Notes under the pieces: model-generated
Seen by the model: the letters and a program-made list of their open reading frames with translations, nothing else
Told to the model about the DNA's origin: nothing
The model's database searches: none
DNA from: an uncultured Gemmatimonadota bacterium
GTDB taxonomy: Bacteria; JAAXHH01
Assembly: GCA_951812955.1 (NCBI GenBank)
Contig: OX638340.1
Coordinates: forward strand, 3,008,001 to 3,072,000
Length of the DNA stretch: 64,000 nt
Direction: 5' to 3'
Part shown: piece after piece, positions 3,874-20,109 of the stretch
Layout: each line of letters starts with the position of its first letter
Position numbering within the stretch: the stretch's first letter is position 1
Program-made: the position numbers and the translations under genes

Positions 3874-4462
3874 CGGGTTTCCTTTCTGAGCAAATTTACC
3901 GTTCCGTGCGAAGGTTCACGAGAAGAATAGCTTGATCAGGATCGCGACGGTCATGACCGACTGGCCAATTGCTACCGTTTCGATGCGGGATAGGCGCTTG
4001 TCTCTATCTTTTCAATGATACCTTCCAGGCGTCCGATACGTCCTTCATGGTTCGTACTTTCGGCCGGCATGAACCAGTTTCATTCCTTCGGTGGCACTCG
4101 TTGTGCGGTGCAGAAGGTTTGAATTACAAGTTTCCCTGACCTCGTCTACTTTGTTTCCACCCTGTTTAAAAACCCCGTATATCCCGGAGTTTCTCACTTA
4201 TTTCAGCTTGCAGGCTACCCATTTCAGTTCCCATACACTTCGTCATACGCCCACGATGTCAGAGGTTCCTTTTTCCCTTAGTCGGGGAATGGCCTTGAAT
4301 CTCGTAATTAAAAAATGAAATCTCAGCGTACCGTTAAGTCGTCCGTGTTATCCTGGTCTTGTGGTCTTTAAAAGCGCTGGATAGAACCTCGTAGAATCAA
4401 AAGTGTCTTGGGCGGTCCATTGATTTGTAAGCGCATAGGTATTGCCCGATATTGGAAAGAAT

Positions 4463-5179
4463 TCATTGTCTTGAATGAAGTCTCTCAGGCAAGGGAAGAT
4501 TGGATTCCACCTGTACCAACCGGTCTTCTTCCAATACGTATCCACTCAGGGACCCGCCATAGACACATCCCGTGTCCAAGCCGATCACGTAAGGCGAACC
4601 GTCTCCCCGGCGTTTGGCGACAAGGCCGCCAGGCGCGTCGTGGCCGAAAATGATTAGTTTACCCGAGGGCTCATAGGCGTCATGCCATCTCGGTCCCACG
4701 ATGCCTTCCACGGGAGGCCAGGTTCGGATGACGAGAAACTCGTCCCGGGTAGTCCCTTGCAGGCCTTTTACCGGGTTGATGCCCGCGTGGACCAGGAGGA
4801 AATCGGGTTCGTCGATCCACAAGGGAAGCGATTCCAGCCAGGGGATCAGGGCTTCCGCGAAGGGTGCGAGGGCTTCCAGGGTTTGACGGTATACATGCCA
4901 TTTTACGGGCACCGGCTCTCCGGACAGGTGCCTGCGTAGCCGATCCGGCAGCCTGACATCGTGGTTGCCGAGGACCATCCTGGCATTGGTATCCTGGATC
5001 AGCTTCCACACTGCGACGGGATCCGGACCCTTGGTAAAAGCGTCGCCCGTCAGATAGAGGAGATCCGTATCCCGCTGGAATTCCAGTTTGGAGATCAGTT
5101 GTTCGAATTCACGGGCGCAGCCGTGAATGTCGCCGATGAACAGGGTACGCAAGGGAATACAGGACTCCGGAATGATCAA
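4463..5179 (-). CDS. Calcineurin-like metallophosphoesterase (ApaH / PrpE-type bis(5'-nucleosyl)-tetraphosphatase-like)
   Basis: 238 aa. Shows the GDIHG, GDAFTKG(P) and GNHD metallophosphatase motifs and a C-terminal GLDTGCVYGG motif typical of ApaH-like enzymes. Confidence 0.75.
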   Translation of the reverse strand: MIIPESCIPLRTLFIGDIHGCAREFEQLISKLEFQRDTDLLYLTGDAFTKGPDPVAVWKLIQDTNARMVLGNHDVRLPDRLRRHLSGEPVPVKWHVYRQTLEALAPFAEALIPWLESLPLWIDEPDFLLVHAGINPVKGLQGTTRDEFLVIRTWPPVEGIVGPRWHDAYEPSGKLIIFGHDAPGGLVAKRRGDGSPYVIGLDTGCVYGGSLSGYVLEEDRLVQVESNLPLPERLHSRQ

Positions 5180-5395
5180 TACACCGGTATATACGGATGG
5201 ATACGACGGCCCAAATTACGTCTACCGGAGAAAACGGAAGGCCTTAGATAATGGAAGACCGGTAATTTCGACATCCTGAATTATAACCGCGCGACTCGGG
5301 GAGGGTCAAGAGAATGAACTGCCAGGTAGGGCTCAGTTTGGAATGTTGCGACTGGCTCGTTACAGAACAACGCTCCCTATAATCGTTGAATACAG

Positions 5396-5433
5396 AAAAG
5401 CCCCGCTAACTGCAACGGGGCTTTTCCTTTTTT
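5396..5433. terminator. GC-rich palindromic hairpin with flanking T/A tracts (bidirectional intrinsic-terminator-like; repeat copy Y1)
   Basis: aaaagccccg-ctaactgcaa-cggggctttt followed by cctttttt on the + strand and preceded by ttgaatacagaaa (U-rich when read on the minus strand). It lies ~230 bp 3' of the collagen-like gene stop. Confidence 0.5.
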
Positions 5434-5664
5434 CGGGACCGATCGCCCTTTTCAGTGGCCGAAGCTCCTACTCAGGGCGAACGGGAAGGTGTAACGAAAT
5501 GACCGAGACAAATGCAGGGCGGATACTGAATCGATTGCTTGCCCTGTCGGGATAACTTCCGGGGGTCACTCGATACTTGGTCTGATGGGGTACATGAGAA
5601 GGTACCCCATCTCGCCACAGGAGTCTGTCAGCGCCCTGTCTACGGGACCCGGATTATCCCGATG

Positions 5665-7188
5665 TTAACTATCCAGCGGCGCCGTGATAGCTACCGTGAA
5701 ATGAATGCGCTTGGATACCGCACCATTTACCTTCAGTTCAACGATATAGTTCTTGGACTCTGCCCCGTCCGCGCCAATACCCACTGGGCCATTTGCTATT
5801 GGCGCACTGCTATCATTCGCGATCGGGTCTGAGTCATCGAAATTCTGCGCCGTAACCGTCACAGTAACTACACCGCCTGCTGCCGTTTCTGTGGCAACTA
5901 ACCCAACTGTTTCGGCCTTATTGCCACTGGTGACGGTGACGCCTAATGCGTTTTCATCGAAACCATCGATTCGTGCGTCAGAAATCGCATTATACAGTTC
6001 GACGGTAAACGTGGTGGAAGTGTTTCCGTCCTTCCACGCCGCCGTAGCCTGGTCTCGTTCCCACGTGAAGGTGCGAGTTTCCGGCTCGGTGTAGATTATG
6101 TCACGTGTGATGCTGGAACCGGAAACGCTGATATCGACGGAAGCCGACGAACCTTCGATAGTAGCTGAAATGGTAGCATCGCCACTGCTCTTTCCGGAGA
6201 TTGTTGCCGCGGCCCCGGCGGCCATCACAAACTTACCTGCCATTTCATGGCCTTTGGGGTGTTTATCGGCGCCAACACCAGCAGAGCCCGTATCACTAGC
6301 CCATTCGTAATTACCCATAGCACCCAAATTGGGTACCGCCTTATCGTCAGAATCAAGCGCACTGGCAGTAATCTTTGTGGTTTCACCGATGGCCAACGGG
6401 ATCAGGCTATCCTTGCTGAGCTTGACCTTGGCAACCGCATTGGAAACATTCACCGACAACTCACCGGCAACGAGATGGGTAGGTGACTTGAAGGATACCA
6501 TCGATGGACTGTACCCGTCATCTGCATCATAATTCGATGCAAGAGCAGTAATTACCCCATCTTCAACTGAAATACCCTCCTCTTCCTCGTCGATAGACCA
6601 AACCAGGTCAGCGCCTTCAATTATGCTGCCATCCTGTGTGCGGACTGCAGCTTTCACTGTAGCTTCCTGGCCTACTCTGAGAAGGATGCTCGTGCCGTCT
6701 CCAATTCTTGCCGGAGTAAGTTCTTCCAAAGCACCATACGCTTCGGACGAGTGCTCAAGCACCATAGCAGCAACATGGTCTGCTGCCAAGATACCGAGAA
6801 TCTCTTCCGGGCTTAAACCAGGAGGCAGTGTAGCTGCTTCACCTTGCGGACCCTGCTCACCTTGCGGACCTGCCGGCCCCGTGGCACCATCAGCGCCATC
6901 AGCGCCATCAGCGCCTGCCGGACCTGCCGGCCCCGTGGCACCATCAGCGCCATCAGCGCCATCAGCGCCTGCCGGACCTGCCGGACCCGTGGCACCATCA
7001 GCACCTGCCGGACCTGCCGGACCCGTGGCACCATCAGCACCTGCCGGACCAGTCGAACCCTGCGGGCCTGCCGGACCTGCCGGACCGCCCGGACCGCCCG
7101 GACCGCTCGGACCCGCGGGGCCGGTCTTACCCTCGCATCCCATCAGGGACAAACCGAAGGCCAATACAGCAATTATGAGGTAATGCAT
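5665..7188 (-). CDS. Collagen-like triple-helix-repeat surface lipoprotein with C-terminal Ig-like (Big-type) beta-sandwich domains
   Basis: 507 aa. Signal peptide with lipobox (LSLMGC), then ~33 uninterrupted G-X-Y triplets ([30 protein letters not shown]...), then ~370 aa of Ser/Thr/Val-rich Ig-like repeats. Strong RBS (GGGAGAA) lies 8 nt 5' of the ATG. Confidence 0.8.
6840..7130. repeat. Higher-order (~54-bp) tandem nucleotide repeats encoding the collagen G-X-Y tract
   Basis: Near-perfect reiteration of gcaccatcagcgccatcagcgccatcagcgcctgccggacctgccgg[c/a]cccgtg within the CDS. Confidence 0.8.
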
Positions 7189-7697
7189 TGTGTTCTCCCG
7201 TTTATGGAAACACTACTAATTAGGATTGACGAAAATTACGAAACTTGCCTATATCGCCTCCTTTCCCGCTAATGGATCGGTTGACTTAAATGCATTACAA
7301 GACTGCTAATTACAGACTCCTAGACTGGCGGATTTCAGTCCGCATTTAGATACTTTTCCCCTTAAATATGGTTAAATTGAGCCATCAGGAAGTGGTTGGC
7401 TCTCTTGTCCGGTTGATGCAAACGAGCGCCACACACGGCTGCAATCAGCCACCACACCCTGTACTGGCTGGGAGGTAGGAATCGTGTTACGTCAGGCAGG
7501 ATCAGGTGCGTCAGGTAAGGGAAAACGGGGGTGTTGAGATAGGGCGAAGTTGTTACTATCTATCATATCTACTGCCAAGGTGAATTGGCTTGAGTCTACC
7601 CTGCACGCAGCATATATTGACACGTGAGGCATATATCGACGAGGCTGTTGAGACGCAGGAGAACCGGAGATTTACCTAAGCTTTAGCGAGGTTCGAT

Positions 7698-9272
7698 TTG
7701 CGCAGAATTGGCCTATTCGGCTGGGGCATCGTAGCGCCCCGTTCGCCCAACATGGAAGCCTTTTCCCGAAACCTGGAGCAGTCGGAAAGCTGGCTTGCGC
7801 CTTTCGAAGGGTTCGGCCCCAACAACTTCCTGGTCGGGGAACCCGAATTCGACTTCCGGGACTACCGGGAATGGATCGATGCCCGATTCCCGTCGAACCG
7901 GTACCCCCGCCTGGTCGACAAGATGGACCCCACCACGCTGCATGCAGTCGGAGCCTTCATCCAGGCGTTGGAACAGAATCCGGGACTGGAAGGGGAACTC
8001 AAGGCGCTGGGAACGGCCGCCCACGTGTACATTGGTACTGGTGTGGGCAATATCCCCACGATCAGCCGGATCAGTATGGAGCTGTACCGGGCCCAGCGCG
8101 CGTGGGACCGGTTCTGGGGTTCGGCCGAACGGAATGCCCGGCTTCGCGCGTATCTCACTCGGCATGACGACGAAGACGAGGGCGAAGCCATCCCGCCCCA
8201 TCCTGAAACCACACCTTCCGCGGCGCGAGACCAGGCCGAAGAATCATGGAATGTCTACTGGACGTCCCAGTCTGAAGAGTTGAGGTCATACCTGGAGACG
8301 CTCGCCAGGATCGAGGGGATGAACGTCGAGGGGACCGTCGAATCAGGCAAGCTGAAACTCATCCGCGAAAAGCAGCGCCGCAAGCAACAACTGCAGGACG
8401 ATTGGGGCGCGCCCGAACCGCCATGGGAATGCGTCTCGGCCGACCTGATCTGGAACATCCATAACACGCCCGCGTCGCAGGTCACCATGATGGGGCAGAT
8501 TCACGGGCTGTCTCTTGCGCCCGTGGCCGCCTGCTCCACCTTCGGCGTGTGCCTTAAACTCGGCATGGACGCCATCCGGCGCGGCGAAGCGAAGGCGGTC
8601 GTCGTCGGCGCCACCGATCCGCCGCCCACGGCCCTGCTGGTGGGCGCCTTCTACCGCGCCCGTGTTTCCGCTGCAGACGGCGCCGTTTCCAAACCCCTGA
8701 CCGGGCTGCGCGGCACCCACGTCTCGGGCGGCTCCGTGCTGTGGATCATCGGGGACTACGAATACATGACGGAGAAGGGGTTCAATCCGATCGGGATGGA
8801 GCCGCTGGCCGTGGGCGTCAGTTCCGACGCCGACCATATCATCACGCCATCGAAGGAAGGACCGCAGATAGCGGTCCACCAGGCTATTGCGGATGCCCGC
8901 GTCTCCCCCGAAGACATCGCCTCGTGGGACCTGCACGCGACGGCGACGCCCGGCGATTTCCTGGAAATGGAGAACCTGCTCGAAATGGTGCCCGGCTCCG
9001 TGACGGTTACCGCGCGGAAAGGCACCTTCGGCCATGGCATGAGCGCCGGAGGAGGGTGGGAACTGACGGCGCAATACCTCGGCTACGAACGGGGCGCGCT
9101 ATATCCCACGCCCCTTTCCCAAGACGAGGTGAATCCGGAAATCGGCGGACTTCACTCCCGGTTCGTCTACGATACATCCTGCCCGCTCCCCGAAGGTATC
9201 GCCGGCAAGCTGTCCATGGGGATCGGCGGCATCAACGCCTGTGTCATTTCCCGGCCGCTTAAAGATGACTGA
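7698..9272 (+). CDS. Beta-ketoacyl synthase (thiolase-fold condensing enzyme)-like protein with a large internal insertion; stand-alone
   Basis: 524 aa. KAS-I/II-like N-terminus (RRIGLFGWGIVAPRSPNMEAF). Active-site Cys context AACSTFG. Both catalytic His contexts are present (HATATPGDFLE, GHGMSAGGGWE), as is the C-terminal GIGGINACVI. A ~110-aa insertion (residues ~130-240) is not found in FabB/FabF. TTG start with GAGGT SD. No ACP, AT or KR genes nearby. Confidence 0.65.
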   Translation: MRRIGLFGWGIVAPRSPNMEAFSRNLEQSESWLAPFEGFGPNNFLVGEPEFDFRDYREWIDARFPSNRYPRLVDKMDPTTLHAVGAFIQALEQNPGLEGELKALGTAAHVYIGTGVGNIPTISRISMELYRAQRAWDRFWGSAERNARLRAYLTRHDDEDEGEAIPPHPETTPSAARDQAEESWNVYWTSQSEELRSYLETLARIEGMNVEGTVESGKLKLIREKQRRKQQLQDDWGAPEPPWECVSADLIWNIHNTPASQVTMMGQIHGLSLAPVAACSTFGVCLKLGMDAIRRGEAKAVVVGATDPPPTALLVGAFYRARVSAADGAVSKPLTGLRGTHVSGGSVLWIIGDYEYMTEKGFNPIGMEPLAVGVSSDADHIITPSKEGPQIAVHQAIADARVSPEDIASWDLHATATPGDFLEMENLLEMVPGSVTVTARKGTFGHGMSAGGGWELTAQYLGYERGALYPTPLSQDEVNPEIGGLHSRFVYDTSCPLPEGIAGKLSMGIGGINACVISRPLKDD

Positions 9273-9554
9273 CGGACGGAAATCCCTCCTGTCTTAGCTG
9301 AGATAACAAGGGCTCCCGGTTTGTCGGACGTGGGCAGGGCTCGATTTACGGGTTTTCCACCTGGTCGATGCAACTCTTTATGCCTTTATCCACGACAAGC
9401 TGGTGGCAACGCAATGGCGCCGTCTTTACCGCGCCAATAGCCCTCTTCGCACTAATGACTTATTTGCATGTTTCCATGATTTAACACTGCCAGCCCGTTC
9501 CGGAAACTGCCTCCGGCAGATCAGACGAAGTAAGGAAACAGCAGGAATAGTATA

Positions 9555-9642
9555 GTGTTCTCCGTTTATGGGCACTAACGCTTTCCTGACCAACTGATTA
9601 ATCCTTGAATACAGAATAGCCCCGTGGTCACCACGGGGCTAT
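9555..9642. repeat. Composite repeat: second copy of the collagen-gene leader motif (X2) followed 26 bp later by a second copy of the terminator-like palindrome motif (Y2)
   Basis: X2 gtgttctccgtttatgg (9555-9571) matches 7190-7207 in 17 of 18 positions. Y2 ttaatccttgaatacagaatagccccg...cggggctat (9598-9642) matches taatcgttgaatacagaaaagccccg...cggggctttt at 5380-5425. X2 is followed by no start codon or ORF. Confidence 0.75.
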
Positions 9643-10232
9643 TCACTTTCAATATGATTATGCTGAGCATCAGGTATGAGAAAGTTTGAAAATTGAACCA
9701 ATTACCAGACAGTTTGTGATTTGATGTTGACGTTGGATCAATTACTAAATAACATGGATGTGTATTTTACGTGATCGTACTTTTGTAAGAGAATTAAAAT
9801 AAAGTATAATACGAATAATGATGAAAAAATATAAGTTTTTTCTTGACTTATTACTCAACGTAACCATATATATACGGATAAATATCACAAAAAAATCATT
9901 TTTTGTCACGATATGGTTGACTTGGCCCTGCAACCAAGCGTACCTTACAATCTAAAGATTCAACAGAAGATAATAAGGAAGCCGTCATGACGGGTTAACA
10001 TGCCCTAAATTCAACCGCGAGCACACAGTCGATCCCGTTGTAGGGGACGCAGCCCAAACCCCCGGGCAACGGTATTCGATCCTGCAGACTACGCCGTCCG
10101 AAATGCGTTAAACCGTCTCATTCATCACACAGGAACATCGAGGCAGGAGTTAGCGGCTTAATTTTCTGCCTATCTCACCCTGAAGAACACGATATATCGA
10201 TCTCGCCCATGAGAGCGTGATGAGCCTCTTGC

Positions 10233-11192
10233 GTGGAGATAGTACCGGGTACCATGCAGCTACGCATTTCCTTACAGTCTCCCCTCGACAGCAAGGCCGA
10301 TCCGTTGTCCATTGATGTCGCGCGCTTGCTGCATGCCAGCATTGCGCCGAACACGGCGAAGGCGTACGGCGATGCATTGCGCAAGTTGTTCGAGCATCTG
10401 GATGGGCAGACACTGACCGACGCTGCGCTGGCCGGTTACCTGGCGCACTTGTATGCCAAAGGACTGGCGCCGGCTTCGGTCACGGTAGTGGTACAGGCCG
10501 TCCGTTTCTGGGAAAAGCTGGAAAACCGCCCGTCCAGTGTCGAGTCGTTGACGAGTCGAACACTGGCCGGAATCCGACGCGAAGGTCGAAACCGGGGCCG
10601 CGGCCAGGTAACCGGGCTGACCCGAGAAACGGTCAATCTCATGGTTCAGAACGCCATCAATACCGACACACTGGCCGGACTGAGAGACGCCGCTCTGTTT
10701 CGTGTAATGAGCGATGCCCTGTTGCGGATTGGGGAAGCCGTCGCCATCGACTGTGAGCACATCACCACCGAGTTCGACGGGAGCGGGCGGCTGATGTTGC
10801 TTCGAAGCAAGACCGACCAGGAGGGAAAGGGTACCAGTCTCTTCCTGACCAACCGTACCGTCGACGCGATCCGGCAATTGCAGCATGGAGCGGGGTTCAC
10901 CACCGGCCCCCTCTTCCGCCGGATGGTGAAGGGCGACCGAATGTGCGACGGCCGTCTGACGGTGGACGGCGCCCGGCTGACTATCAAAGCGTCTGCGGAG
11001 CGGGTCGGTATCAAGGGCGTGAGCGGCCACAGTCTTCGCATCGGAACCGCCCAGGAACTCGCGCAGCGCGGCGCATCCCTGGTGGAATTGCAGAACGCCG
11101 GCCGATGGACCGACAGCCAGATGCCCGCGCACTACACCCGTGAGCAGGCCGCGGGCAAGGGTGCCGTCGCCCGCTTGCTGGGGATTGACTGA
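10233..11192 (+). CDS. Cre-like tyrosine site-specific recombinase (phage-integrase family)
   Basis: 319 aa. The C-terminus aligns well with P1 Cre (GHSLRIGTAQELAQRGASLVELQNAGRWTDSQMPAHYTRE...ARLLGID versus Cre GHSARVGAARDMARAGVSIPEIMQAGGWTNVNIVMNYIRN...VRLLEDGD). This includes the catalytic H-x-x-R, W and Y. The N-terminal SAM-like domain is also Cre-like (YLAHLYAKGLAPASV). GTG (10233) or ATG (10254) start. A 550-bp AT-rich tract lies upstream. Confidence 0.8.
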   Translation: MEIVPGTMQLRISLQSPLDSKADPLSIDVARLLHASIAPNTAKAYGDALRKLFEHLDGQTLTDAALAGYLAHLYAKGLAPASVTVVVQAVRFWEKLENRPSSVESLTSRTLAGIRREGRNRGRGQVTGLTRETVNLMVQNAINTDTLAGLRDAALFRVMSDALLRIGEAVAIDCEHITTEFDGSGRLMLLRSKTDQEGKGTSLFLTNRTVDAIRQLQHGAGFTTGPLFRRMVKGDRMCDGRLTVDGARLTIKASAERVGIKGVSGHSLRIGTAQELAQRGASLVELQNAGRWTDSQMPAHYTREQAAGKGAVARLLGID

Positions 11193-11200
11193 GGGGAGAC

Positions 11201-11280
11201 TGAGTCGTGAGTCTCTACGGTGAGTCGTGAGTCTCTACGGTGAGACGCGGGTCTCTACGGTGCGTCGTGGAACGCTACGG
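11201..11280. repeat. Four tandem 20-bp units (tgagtcgtgagtctctacgg x2, tgagacgcgggtctctacgg, tgcgtcgtggaacgctacgg) immediately 3' of the recombinase gene
   Basis: Direct reading. Unit 3 contains the 5-bp inverted repeat gagac-gcgg-gtctc. The repeats lie between the convergent stops of the recombinase (11192) and the thioredoxin-domain gene (11303). Confidence 0.8.
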
Positions 11281-11302
11281 AGGAGACGTCACGCGTGCGA
11301 TA

Positions 11303-13420
<2,118 letters not shown>

Positions 13421-14477: not shown

Positions 14478-17413
<2,936 letters not shown>

Positions 17414-17418
17414 TTATG

Positions 17419-20109
17419 CTAGTCGGCGCTCGCGACTTTCGACCGCGGTGATTTCCTGGCGCGTCTGATTTCTTCTCGTTTCTTCGATATCCAGTTCTGC
17501 CACCAGACCACGATGGGACTAGCTATGAAGATCGAAGAGTAGGTTCCTGTGATTACTCCGAATGTCAACGCCAGGGCGAAACCCCAGTTGGTCGACGCGC
17601 TGCCGGCCAGCAGGAAGACCAGGACCAGGAGTACGGTGAGCGACGTCATCATGGTTCGATTCAGGCATTCATTGATGCTTCGGTCCACCACGCCTGAAAA
17701 CCCCTCCGTTCGGGTTCGGCCCAGGCTTTCCCTTATGCGGTCGTAGACCACGATGGTATCGTTTGTTGAATACCCCACGACGGTCAGCAGGGCCGCAACG
17801 ACCGCCATGGTCAGTTCCTCACCCACCAGGGTGAGCATGGCCAGGACGATGAGTACGTCGTGTATCAGCGCGACGATCGTTCCGATGCCGAACCGGAAGC
17901 CGTTGACCTGCCGGAACCGAATGGTGATGTAGAGGACGATACCGATGATGGAAGCCCCCACGGCGCCCATGGCGTCGACCGTGAGTTCCTTGCCGATCTT
18001 CGGGCTGACGTTGTATTCCTGGCGAAGCCAGTCCTGTTCGTCGCCCTTGAGGTTCTCGGGAAACTGTTCCTGGAGCGTCGTTTTAACCGCGGATGCGATC
18101 TGTTGCTCATTCCATTCGCTGTCGGCCGCCCTGATCAGGATGTTGTCCTCCTCGCCGATCACCTTGATCTCGCTCTGGCTCAGGTCCACCGCCTGGTTCT
18201 CGATGGTGACGTTACCGAGTGCGCCACGTATTTCCTGTACCTCCACCGGAGGATCGAACCGCATCTCGATCAGAGACCCGCTTTGAAAGTCCACGCCCCA
18301 ATCCACTCCGCCGCGTATGACGATGGTTCCCAGCCCGACCACGATGATGCACCAGGTAATGACGAACGCCGCCTTGCCGAATCGCATGAATCCGAAGAAC
18401 AGGCGTCCGAAGGGATCGGTTCTCCCGATGCTGACCTGGACTAGCTGCCACCGGTCGATGAGCGCGTCGAACAGGGACCGCGTAATGAATATGGCCGTGA
18501 ACATGCTGATCAGAATGCCGAAACCCAGCGTCACGGCGAATCCCTTGATGGGGCCGGTTCCGAACTCGTACAGGGCGAAAGCGGTGATCAGCGTGGTAAT
18601 ATTAGCGTCCACGATGGTGCGCAGCGCATTCCCGTAACCGCTGTCCACGGCCTGCCGGATGGTCTTCTGTCCCGACTTGAGCTCTTCCTTGATCCGTTCG
18701 AAAATGAGGATATTGGCGTCCACCGACATGCCCATGGTCAGTATGATTCCAGCGATGCCGGGCAGCGTCAGCGTAGCCTGGAAGGCGCCGAGGACGGCCA
18801 GAAGAAAGAGGAGGTTCAGAATCAGGGCGAAATTCGCGATGAAGCCGGCCGTCCGGTAATACACCGCCATGAAGATCATGACGGCGATGAGACCCAGGAT
18901 CGAGGCCCACTTGCCGGAGTTGATGGCGTCCGCTCCCAGGGACGGTCCCACGACATACTTGCTTATGATCTCCATGGGAGCGGGCAAGGCGCCCGCGCGC
19001 AACACGATGGCGAGATCTCTGGCTTCCTCAAGCGAGTTGATGCCCGTGATCTCGCCCCGGCCATTGGGTATGCGCCCCTGAATGACCGGAGCCGAAAACA
19101 CCCGGCCGTCCAGCACGATCGCCAGGCGCCGGCCGATGTTGTTCCCCGTCACGCGGGAGAAGGTCCTTGCGCCGTCGTCTGTGGTCGCAAAACCCACCGA
19201 CGCCACTCCCATGCTGCCGATATCGCTTCCCGATCCGGTCTGTGGAAAGGCGTCCGCCAGTACCGCGCCAGTAAGTTCCGGCAGGGCGTTCATGTAGTAA
19301 TAGGACCTTACGCGTTGTCCGTTCGCCGTCGTCCGCAGCACTCCGCCCCGGATCTCCGCGGCGTCCGGTATGAAGCTCTGCACCTGGGGCTGAGCCAGGA
19401 TCTCGTCCACCCGGGCGATATTGCTCGCCGGTACGATGATCTCGTTGTCGGAGAGGTCGATCAAGGACAGAAAGGGGTTGCGTTCCGCCGATGCGCTCAC
19501 TTCAGGGATCAGGGCGCTCGTATCCGCAGGGACGCTCGTGGTATCGCGGGCTGCCAGCAGTGCGTCTATGCGCTCGACGACCGAACGCAACTTGCCGCCG
19601 TCGCGCAACAGCCTGAACTCCAGTTGGGCGGTCTGGTTGATCAGGGTCATCGCACGATCGATATCCTTCAGTCCCGGCAACTCGACGATGATGCGGTCTT
19701 CGCCTTCCTGCTGGATGATCGGTTCGGTGACGCCGAATTCATTGACGCGGTTCGAGATGACCTGCATGGCCCGTTCCACCACGTCTACCGCTTCTTCCTC
19801 CGGCAGGTTGGATTTGTCCACTTCAAGCTTGATGTGCACGCCGCCCTGAAGATCCAGACCCAGGCGGATGGACTGATCCTGAAGCCGGTCATGTTCGGCT
19901 TTGGACAGGTTCAGTCTTTTGAGCTCTTCCCGGTCCGCGCCGGTCAGCAGCGGATTCGAATCGATCGCTTCGGTCTGTTCCGGGGAAAAAGCGTTTTGAA
20001 AAGGGGAGTATTGCCAGTAGTCAGAAGTTCTGAAGGAAGGATAGACGTACCACAGCGCGGTGAAGATGACTGCGAGAATAAGAACGATGCGTACCTGTTT
20101 CCACTGCAT
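17419..20109 (-). CDS. secDF: Protein-export membrane protein SecD-SecF fusion
   Basis: 896 aa. N-terminal TM helix plus periplasmic domain, then the SecD 6-TM block, then a second periplasmic domain and the SecF TM block. Fused SecDF occurs in several bacterial lineages. Confidence 0.9.
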   Translation of the reverse strand: MQWKQVRIVLILAVIFTALWYVYPSFRTSDYWQYSPFQNAFSPEQTEAIDSNPLLTGADREELKRLNLSKAEHDRLQDQSIRLGLDLQGGVHIKLEVDKSNLPEEEAVDVVERAMQVISNRVNEFGVTEPIIQQEGEDRIIVELPGLKDIDRAMTLINQTAQLEFRLLRDGGKLRSVVERIDALLAARDTTSVPADTSALIPEVSASAERNPFLSLIDLSDNEIIVPASNIARVDEILAQPQVQSFIPDAAEIRGGVLRTTANGQRVRSYYYMNALPELTGAVLADAFPQTGSGSDIGSMGVASVGFATTDDGARTFSRVTGNNIGRRLAIVLDGRVFSAPVIQGRIPNGRGEITGINSLEEARDLAIVLRAGALPAPMEIISKYVVGPSLGADAINSGKWASILGLIAVMIFMAVYYRTAGFIANFALILNLLFLLAVLGAFQATLTLPGIAGIILTMGMSVDANILIFERIKEELKSGQKTIRQAVDSGYGNALRTIVDANITTLITAFALYEFGTGPIKGFAVTLGFGILISMFTAIFITRSLFDALIDRWQLVQVSIGRTDPFGRLFFGFMRFGKAAFVITWCIIVVGLGTIVIRGGVDWGVDFQSGSLIEMRFDPPVEVQEIRGALGNVTIENQAVDLSQSEIKVIGEEDNILIRAADSEWNEQQIASAVKTTLQEQFPENLKGDEQDWLRQEYNVSPKIGKELTVDAMGAVGASIIGIVLYITIRFRQVNGFRFGIGTIVALIHDVLIVLAMLTLVGEELTMAVVAALLTVVGYSTNDTIVVYDRIRESLGRTRTEGFSGVVDRSINECLNRTMMTSLTVLLVLVFLLAGSASTNWGFALALTFGVITGTYSSIFIASPIVVWWQNWISKKREEIRRARKSPRSKVASAD

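Follow-up and report, generated by a model that had tools for sequence, protein, structure and literature searches.

Which of two neighbouring genes is the newcomer, and what rearranges the DNA around them, is the question raised by one locus of an uncultured Gemmatimonadota bacterium (contig OX638340.1; the whole 64-kilobase (kb) stretch analysed is called the window below). A minus-strand gene for a collagen-like lipoprotein of 507 amino acids (aa) at 5665-7188 (Pfam Collagen, E = 2.6e-12) and a plus-strand gene for a beta-ketoacyl synthase-like protein (KAS) at 7698-9272 (Pfam ketoacyl-synt N and C domains) are bracketed there by two short motifs, X and Y, each present twice in the same orientation, and a gene for a Cre-like tyrosine recombinase lies beyond them. 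An earlier note on this DNA had proposed that the KAS gene was inserted into the leader of the collagen-like gene, or that both are cassette-like units. We compared the window with related loci; all evidence is comparative, across metagenome assemblies, and positions are window coordinates throughout, except that other loci (L001, L082 and so on) are given in their own contig coordinates. We consider it quite probable that cassettes for collagen-like surface lipoproteins form a variable array here around an ancestral KAS gene, adjoining the Cre-like recombinase gene and rearranged at 16-nucleotide (nt) sites.

All four motif copies are where the earlier note had placed them, Y2 spanning 9599-9644, one to two bases off the 9598-9642 given there. 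X1 (GTGTTCTCCCGTTTATGG, 7190-7207; CCATAAACGGGAGAACAC on the minus strand) abuts the ATG of the collagen-like gene. X2 (GTGTTCTCCGTTTATGG, 9555-9571) is, as had been said, identical to X1 at 17 of 18 positions, the difference being one indel (a missing C), and no start codon follows it. The 26-nt flanks of Y1 (5380-5425) and Y2 agree at 24 positions, each flank is followed by a GC palindrome whose interior differs between the two copies, and X2 and Y2 are separated by 26-27 nt. The claim that these matches are far beyond chance holds for Y, of which the window contains two copies only (two matches were found in 0 of 100 shuffles). For X the case is weaker than claimed: with any pair allowed and both strands counted (128 kb), a split match of 9+8 nt is nothing unusual.

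The position of KAS itself is informative. In three relatives free of both recombinase and collagen-like genes (L082, L083 and L086, with KAS 87%, 83% and 78% identical), the order is phosphoesterase (minus strand), about 256 base pairs (bp), KAS (plus), 20-43 bp, DUF255 (minus), within the wider series aminotransferase, GFO, phosphoesterase, KAS, DUF255, GFO2, DDAH, ligA and secDF. No collagen gene, recombinase or 16-nt site was found on these contigs, nor any match to profiles of the conserved 5' and 3' modules described below. KAS, DUF255, GFO2, DDAH and ligA show parallel divergence among the relatives, and the KAS-like family is about 65% identical across Acidobacteriota, Gemmatimonadota, Zixibacteria and other phyla. 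The KAS promoter region (about 7575-7697) is recognisably common to the window and L082 (GGTGAATTGGCTTGAGT...TATATTGAC), as is the phosphoesterase promoter region. Because syntenic relatives without the recombinase keep KAS directly between phosphoesterase and DUF255, KAS is, judged by gene order, the ancestral resident; the collagen gene and the recombinase segment came later. Relative to these relatives, the extra DNA of the window consists of the collagen segment (about 5320-7575) and the segment from the KAS stop to the DUF255 stop (9273-11300). The empty site expected by the earlier note, with Y, X and the collagen gene in the absence of KAS, was not found in the relatives; what the empty sites there lack is the collagen gene. 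Of the 524 aa of the KAS-like protein, the first 250 or so are unmatched by KAS profiles, which align only with the remainder.

The collagen-like genes form a family whose members have common ends. They lie on the minus strand between the recombinase and phosphoesterase genes, on either side of KAS, and their number varies by strain (three in L088, three in L087, two in L093, two and a scar in L095, and one visible on the short contig of L091); loci bearing both cassettes and recombinase are the window, L001, L087-L093 and L095. Eleven paralogues in seven loci have in common an upstream region, the leader CCATAAACGGGAGAACACAATG, a signal peptide and a 3' module. The protein consists of a lipoprotein signal peptide, a G-X-Y array (residues 17-118) and a variable C-terminal domain. 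Its N-terminus is identical or nearly so in the 11 paralogues, and the C-terminal domains are 25-57% identical, even at one chromosomal slot: those of the window, L093a and L088a, all at the same slot, are 26-27% identical. An exact look-up of the window's collagen-like protein returned no record, because the repeat number varies. The coding array of G-X-Y triplets (6839-7117) is a 9-nt-periodic repeat, in which the window and L001 differ by indels of 36, 27 and 9 nt.

The conserved 5' module of the window's gene (7189-7564, minus strand) has X1 as its last 18 nt, the leader that holds the ribosome-binding site (RBS), and contains one 16-nt site. Ten such modules were aligned and are alignable for about 350 nt upstream of the ATG; a profile built without the window's own copy matched the window at 7115-7544 (E = 3e-106). 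The conserved 3' module, which is the 3' untranslated region (UTR; 5372-5664, minus strand), ends in the Y1 hairpin (5396-5425) and its flank TTCTGTATTCAACGATTA. A module of about 290 nt, 74-91% identical to window positions 5377-5664, follows every paralogue in L087, L088, L091, L093 and L095, and a profile built from the 3' modules of seven relatives matched the window at 5372-5674 (E = 6e-93). Neither profile matched L082, L083, L086, L094 or L096, the last two being loci with recombinase homologues but without cassettes or sites. By this comparison X and Y are the conserved front and back ends of collagen-like lipoprotein cassettes, and X1 and Y1 are the two ends of the single intact cassette in the window strain. 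Replacement, gain and loss of cassettes between strains were probably helped by homologous recombination in the conserved modules.

Folding Y as RNA, as the earlier note had suggested, gave stable hairpins: on the minus strand Y1 and Y2 fold with -25.4 and -29.5 kcal/mol (z-scores of -4.9 and -6.7), and UUUUCUGUAUU follows. Hairpins of -25 to -29.5 kcal/mol (z = -4.4 to -6.7) stand at the end of each cassette's 3' UTR. The stem is perfect and GC-rich, with 12-15 bp and a loop of 3-10 nt; GCCCCG/CGGGGC is kept and the loop is different in every copy. Y is thus modelled as a terminator-like hairpin. A simple terminator scan did not list the Y hairpins, because part of the U-run pairs in the stem. 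The reading of Y as a lox-like site, with inverted arms and a variable spacer, was set aside, as the spacers differ in every copy and no breakpoints fall at Y.

Further features accompany the cassettes in some arrays. Repeats of the CCTGACGTA / GGGTACGTCAGGTAGGAGC type, with a period of about 19-20 nt, lie at the distal end of 5' modules (window 7472-7536, minus strand, of the CCTGACGTA type; L091 3290-3375; L092 689-745), with amplification in L091 and an inverted orientation in L092. A regulator may bind to these repeats, or they may serve the recombinase as accessory sites. Toxin-antitoxin-like pairs on the opposite strand are interleaved with the cassettes of L087 (1754-2289 and 4632-5221; a 100-aa open reading frame (ORF) with DUF2283, and HigB-like with HTH_3). 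A conserved basic protein of 77-82 aa (...NRYARRYLNRL(G/S)WSG(R/K)W) is encoded after the putative cassette terminator in some arrays (L088 2955-3188, minus strand; L092 277-525, plus strand).

If X1 and Y1 bound one cassette, X2 and Y2 need another origin, for which L091 is informative. The L091 recombinase is 96% identical to that of the window. This locus holds, in order, the 3' end of KAS, an intact ORF of 99 aa, X2, 26 nt, a Y with a complete 3' module, an intact 455-aa paralogue with its 5' module, GGGTACGTCAGGTAGGAGC repeats of about 19 nt, an AT-rich region and the recombinase. In the window, the terminator-like Y2 hairpin with its flank (9599-9644, minus strand; arms 9614-9628 and 9630-9644) was recognised by the 3'-module profile at 9582-9645 (E = 1e-6) over module positions 266-330 only. 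Fused to Y2 are about 45 nt of distal 5' module (9632-9677; module positions 186-231, profile E = 5.6e-5), and a relic cassette-side site, CTCAGCATAATCATAT (9652-9667, minus strand), is the same variant as the L091 cassette site. On this alignment Y2 is the 3' stub, with the putative terminator, of a cassette that was lost in the window strain and kept in L091. The scar junction lies at GGAAAAG(T/C)CC, which is found both just after the 5'-module site and in the terminator stem, and this points to loss of the second cassette by an internal, microhomology-mediated deletion. A similar deletion scar occupies the other slot in L095.

Two further features lie on the KAS side of Y2. A broken remnant of the 99-aa membrane/coiled-coil ORF lies at 9401-9539 (plus strand; intact in L091 at 898-1197): window positions 9401-9475 and 9480-9539 match L091 913-987 and 1144-1203, with about 156 nt missing between them. 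X2 (9543-9575 by local alignment to X1, minus strand, core 9555-9571) lies beyond the putative cassette terminator both in the window and in L091, where its RBS-like GGAG has become GTAG, and it is absent from L093 and L088. We read X2 as probably an older, decayed leader relic.

X and Y are not the only repeats of interest. The top inverted repeat of the region (I1: 7349-7388 / 9847-9886) has as its core the 16-nt site, with the consensus CTCAATCTAATCATAT. Every cassette 5' module carries one such site on the minus strand, with the left flank CTTCCTGACG and the right flank TTAAGGGGAAAAG; the window copy is CTCAATTTAACCATAT at 7366-7381 (left flank CTTCCTGATG, right flank TTAAGGGGAAAAG), inverted with respect to 9854-9869. 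One plus-strand site, with the left flank TTTTTTCTTGACTTATTA and the right flank ATATACGG, lies 385-400 nt upstream of every cassette-associated recombinase; in the window this recombinase-side site is CTCAACGTAACCATAT at 9854-9869. A census of the sites found none in L082, L083, L086, L094 or L096.

Three observations bear on exchange at these sites. The P0122 population is represented by six contigs (L092 and L098-L102) that encode one identical recombinase protein and show 99.5-99.9% identity over the stretch which begins at the site and includes the recombinase. Leftwards of it, two distal flanks of cassette type occur that are unrelated to each other, one in L092 and L099 and the other in L101 and L102; these hybrid junctions switch inside the 16 nt, and both flanks are oriented as inversion predicts. 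L092 also has a plus-strand cassette 3' module upstream, again as inversion predicts, and the contigs of L098 and L100 end about 35 nt from the site. The second observation comes from L001, which differs from the window by five single-nucleotide polymorphisms (SNPs) in the 5.2-kb block 5103-10324, with flanks 5-10% divergent (the adjacent phosphoesterase and recombinase genes); this near-identity between diverged flanks suggests that the block was recently exchanged between strains by recombination. Of the five SNPs, 7371 and 9864 each affect the 11th position of one of the two inverted sites, with an identical base change, a coincidence with a roughly estimated probability of 1e-5 or less. 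Finally, the three sites of L093 all show a variant peculiar to that locus (CTCAAGCT...). The two hybrid flanks joined at the site, the paired SNPs and the L093-specific variant together argue for exchange at the 16-nt site. The likely recombination sites are thus the 16-nt inverted repeats, not X or Y, and the outcome would be inversion. Excision of KAS by recombination between X1 and X2, as the earlier note had envisaged, was not borne out. Its other suggestion, cassette-like units exchanged by recombination, stands in part: there is a collagen cassette with conserved ends and the Cre-like recombinase very probably acts on the locus, while exchange at X or Y finds no support.

The recombinase gene (10254-11192, plus strand; Pfam Phage_integrase) encodes 312 aa from its ATG, the longest ORF starting at GTG 10233, and it does lie about 600 nt past Y2, as had been noted. 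Its best solved relative is Cre (7rhz_B, E = 3.6e-11), and the alignment spans the R, HxxR, W and Y motifs (LLRIGE/LLRIAE, GHSLRIG/GHSARVG, GRWTD/GGWTN and AHYTRE/MNYIRN). The gene occupies the same chromosomal spot adjoining DUF255 in L087-L093, L095 and L096, and homologues of 84-96% identity adjoin DUF255 in other contigs, for which NCBI names Gemmatimonadota. A metagenome scan with the recombinase as query returned two loci, both of them decisive; a genome-collection scan with the DUF255 protein gave matches of at most 54% identity, none with synteny. The reading of the enzyme as a prophage integrase was dropped, as it had no match in phage genomes at E <= 1e-5. Rfam and tRNA scans returned nothing in the region, and therefore no tRNA-type attachment site. 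The adjacent Cre-like recombinase is probably the catalyst of the rearrangement.

Two non-coding segments separate the relic site from the recombinase. The first (9668-9853, plus strand) is unique and AT-rich (GC 0.31-0.35). It closes with an A-tract and a T-tract followed by TTGACT (9843-9848), by its sequence a candidate -35/UP half of a promoter; TTTTTTCTTGACTTATTA is conserved ahead of the site in every locus so arranged. The second is the recombinase leader (9870-10253, plus strand), with conserved blocks across six loci, among them GGTTGAC..CGTACCTTA and TCGATCC..GTT..GGGGAC. In this leader of about 380 nt RNAalifold found only four covarying pairs of 60, and no Rfam family matched it; it could be a structured 5' UTR or regulatory DNA. 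Its GGTTGAC...CGTACCTTA block, which is invariant and lies downstream of the site, is a possible promoter of the recombinase gene itself.

We propose that a cassette-side and the recombinase-side 16-nt site recombine under catalysis by the Cre-like recombinase, which would invert the DNA between them, in the window strain including KAS. The AT-rich segment ending in TTGACT would donate the -35/UP half, each cassette contributing just a -10-like CATATT from the border of its site, so that inversion would complete the promoter of a single cassette at any one time. When the four possible configurations were joined in silico for six loci, the recombinase-side left flank with the cassette right flank gave TTGACT-16-CATATT in 14 of 14 joins. 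The reciprocal join (cassette-side left flank with recombinase-side right flank) passed the promoter rule in 2 of 14, both from L095, and the native cassette and native recombinase-side configurations passed in no case; the same rule also detects the KAS and phosphoesterase promoters. The flanks would then amount to a split-promoter shufflon, in which one -35/UP element is joined by inversion to one of several -10-only cassettes so that one surface variant is expressed, and is otherwise parked on the recombinase leader, with KAS a passive passenger inside. This promoter logic is offered tentatively, as one possible account of how the array is used.

Other explanations were considered for the same arrangement. 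One is the insertion first proposed, in which KAS and its upstream region are an insert of about 2.3 kb in the collagen leader, with X duplicated as a 19-bp target, or a module excisable between X1 and X2. X1 and X2 do stand as direct repeats on either side of KAS, and Y2-X2 resembles a terminator-leader junction. The idea is nevertheless refuted by the same KAS position in three relatives without collagen gene, recombinase, X or Y, and the divergence of KAS keeps step with that of its neighbours. X belongs to a 350-nt module and is no free-standing 18-mer, X2 is degenerate, still less X-like in L091 and missing altogether from two cassette-bearing loci, and neither mobility genes nor terminal repeats were found at 7208 and 9554; we regard an inserted KAS as almost certainly wrong. 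An integron-like array, with the recombinase as integron integrase, Y as an attC-type site and cassettes inserted and excised at Y, would account for a tyrosine recombinase divergent from mostly co-oriented variable genes, for the toxin-antitoxin-like pairs interleaved in L087 and for a palindromic Y with conserved flanks and variable interior. Against this, the NCBIfam matches of the enzyme are only of the XerA/XerD/XerC type (39-51 bits, XerA and XerD being the best at about 50, with cut-offs of 220-335) and include no integron-integrase model, and its closest structure is Cre. With its short and perfectly paired GC stem and its runs of A and U, Y resembles a terminator, and each cassette has its own long 5' module. 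Occupied and empty slots break inside the cassette, not at Y, the window scar keeping Y and part of the 5' module. An integron is accordingly very improbable here.

Several observations weigh against inversion by the recombinase and against the promoter logic built on it. The alternative junctions come from different metagenome assemblies, not from within one sample or clone, and the reciprocal junction (TTGACTTATTA + site + TTAAGGGG, that is TTGACTTATTA-CTCNNNNTANTCATAT-TTAAGGGG) was not found in the fetched loci or in IMG/VR. No convincing lox-like dyad symmetry was seen by eye in the 16-nt site. The promoter calls are consensus matches only, and in most assemblies the TTGACT segment adjoins the recombinase leader, a state in which a split promoter would leave all cassettes off. 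Recombinases 78-81% identical to that of the window occur without cassettes or sites in L094 (10001-10939) and L096 (10001-10936), and the enzyme is therefore not strictly tied to cassettes. As for X2, its match to the 5'-module profile is at the right module positions (370-395) and yet not significant window-wide (E = 0.81).

These points leave room for a recombinase that is a bystander, with cassette gain, loss and replacement and the hybrid junctions all produced by RecA-type or illegitimate recombination between modules or short repeats. Replacement at a fixed slot with conserved flanks, as between the window, L093a and L088a, fits homologous exchange, the two deletion scars have the look of microhomology-mediated events, strains seem to have exchanged the block 5103-10324 recently, and some recombinase homologues have no cassettes. 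Two independent hybrid types nevertheless have their crossovers inside the same 16 nt, where the homology between recombinase side and cassette side extends over only about 16-20 nt, too little for RecA to act on efficiently. Both the paired SNP and the site variants specific to single genomes are signs that exchange has recurred precisely here, and the site lies upstream of the recombinase in cassette-bearing genomes only. We therefore judge a bystander enzyme improbable. Somewhat more room, while still unlikely, is left for the view that the X1-X2 similarity is coincidental and that common descent applies to Y alone. It has in its favour the weak profile score of X2 over the window, the 9+8-nt split of the match and the less X-like copy in L091. 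It has against it that strand and module position of the match are those expected of a leader, that the match continues into the first codons (ATA standing there for ATG), and that the 31-column alignment to the X1 region (score 31) was reached by only 0.1% of 1000 shuffles within the 326 nt adjoining Y2.

Inversion at sites in the 5' regions of a surface-lipoprotein family has its closest analogue in the Vpma/Xer1 system of Mycoplasma. The vpma (Mycoplasma agalactiae), vsp (M. bovis) and vsa (M. pulmonis) loci have adjacent tyrosine recombinases, Xer1, Mbr and HvsR, and inversions there put alternative lipoprotein genes behind a unique promoter (PMC2268961). As in those loci, the array described here is a multigene family of surface lipoproteins with a conserved 5' UTR and signal peptide and variable, repeat-containing mature parts; a tyrosine recombinase gene adjoins the family, and each gene has its recombination site, here a probable one, in the 5' region, with the partner site inverted. 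Alternative arrangements with breakpoints at the sites occur in both, here across samples and not in one clone, and inversions would re-pair genes with a unique upstream element, the single-promoter logic here being inferred. The differences are considerable. The phylum is another, names of close homologues pointing to uncultured marine Gemmatimonadota, the recombinase is Cre-like rather than Xer-like and the proteins are collagen-like. The site lies about 215-230 nt upstream of the ATG, in the mycoplasma loci at -1 to -72. Unlike in mycoplasmas, the cassettes are co-oriented in most assemblies, the partner site lies in the recombinase's own upstream region, and the interval that would be inverted includes KAS, a conserved metabolic gene.

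Other recombinase systems resemble the locus in part. In invertons, such as E. coli fimS with FimB/FimE and the capsule promoters of Bacteroides, a tyrosine recombinase flips a promoter segment between short inverted repeats and so controls surface structures. The 186-bp interval 9668-9853, between the sites 9652-9667 and 9854-9869, has that layout; unlike in invertons, one site here can pair with several partners, giving a multiple-inversion, shufflon-like topology, and the proposed crossover falls between -35 and -10 instead of flanking the whole promoter. The enzyme shares with Cre/loxP of phage P1 the aligned motifs LLRI(G/A)E, GHSxR(I/V)G, G(R/G)WT and (H/N)Y(T/I)R, but identity is low, no 13-8-13 symmetric site is evident, and the gene, for which phage genomes gave no match, is inherited vertically on the chromosome. 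Integrons likewise have a tyrosine recombinase divergent from a strain-variable cassette array, with some cassettes toxin-antitoxin-like; the locus differs from them in having no IntI signature and no attC-type sites, in the long 5' modules of its cassettes, and in evidence that points to inversion at 5' sites as against insertion and excision at 3' sites. The literature searched contained no description of such a locus in Gemmatimonadota or for collagen-like lipoproteins.

The array is flanked in the window by a metallophosphoesterase gene (4463-5179, minus strand) and a gene for a DUF255/thioredoxin protein (11303-13420, minus strand), both assigned by Pfam/NCBIfam. Between the recombinase and DUF255 stops, a 20-nt tandem repeat (TGAGTCGTGAGTCTCTACGG) is present in 4-5 copies (11181-11280), and L001 is shorter there by 40 nt than the window. 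On the other side, 341 nt (3926-4266) are missing in L001 (junction ...cacgag|aggttcc...), and window positions 3913-4072 match the region of a 50-aa ORF in L093 (2103-2260); the whole spacer between GFO and phosphoesterase contains variable small ORFs in relatives. A second block nearly identical between the window and L001 lies at about 15800-19300. Of the two cassette-free recombinases of L094 and L096, one adjoins type I-E cas genes on a 6.9-megabase contig, and the other adjoins DUF255, with AdoHcyase and MatE genes upstream.

For the reading of such loci, the case is a caution that short direct repeats around a gene may be the conserved ends of neighbouring cassettes and not insertion footprints. 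If the proposed inversion is real, it would also explain the assembly breaks at this locus in these genomes, and it would provide a compact Cre-like recombinase with a defined family of sites of about 16 nt. For host-associated bacteria such as Mycoplasma, Bacteroides and E. coli, there is ample documentation of programmed surface variation by recombinase-driven inversion; the locus would bring variation of the mycoplasma type to a free-living or marine lineage where none is described. Uncultured marine bacteria would then vary a collagen-like surface layer in two ways, by inversion within a population and by replacement, gain and loss of cassettes from strain to strain, for which pressure from phages or grazers is our guess at a cause.

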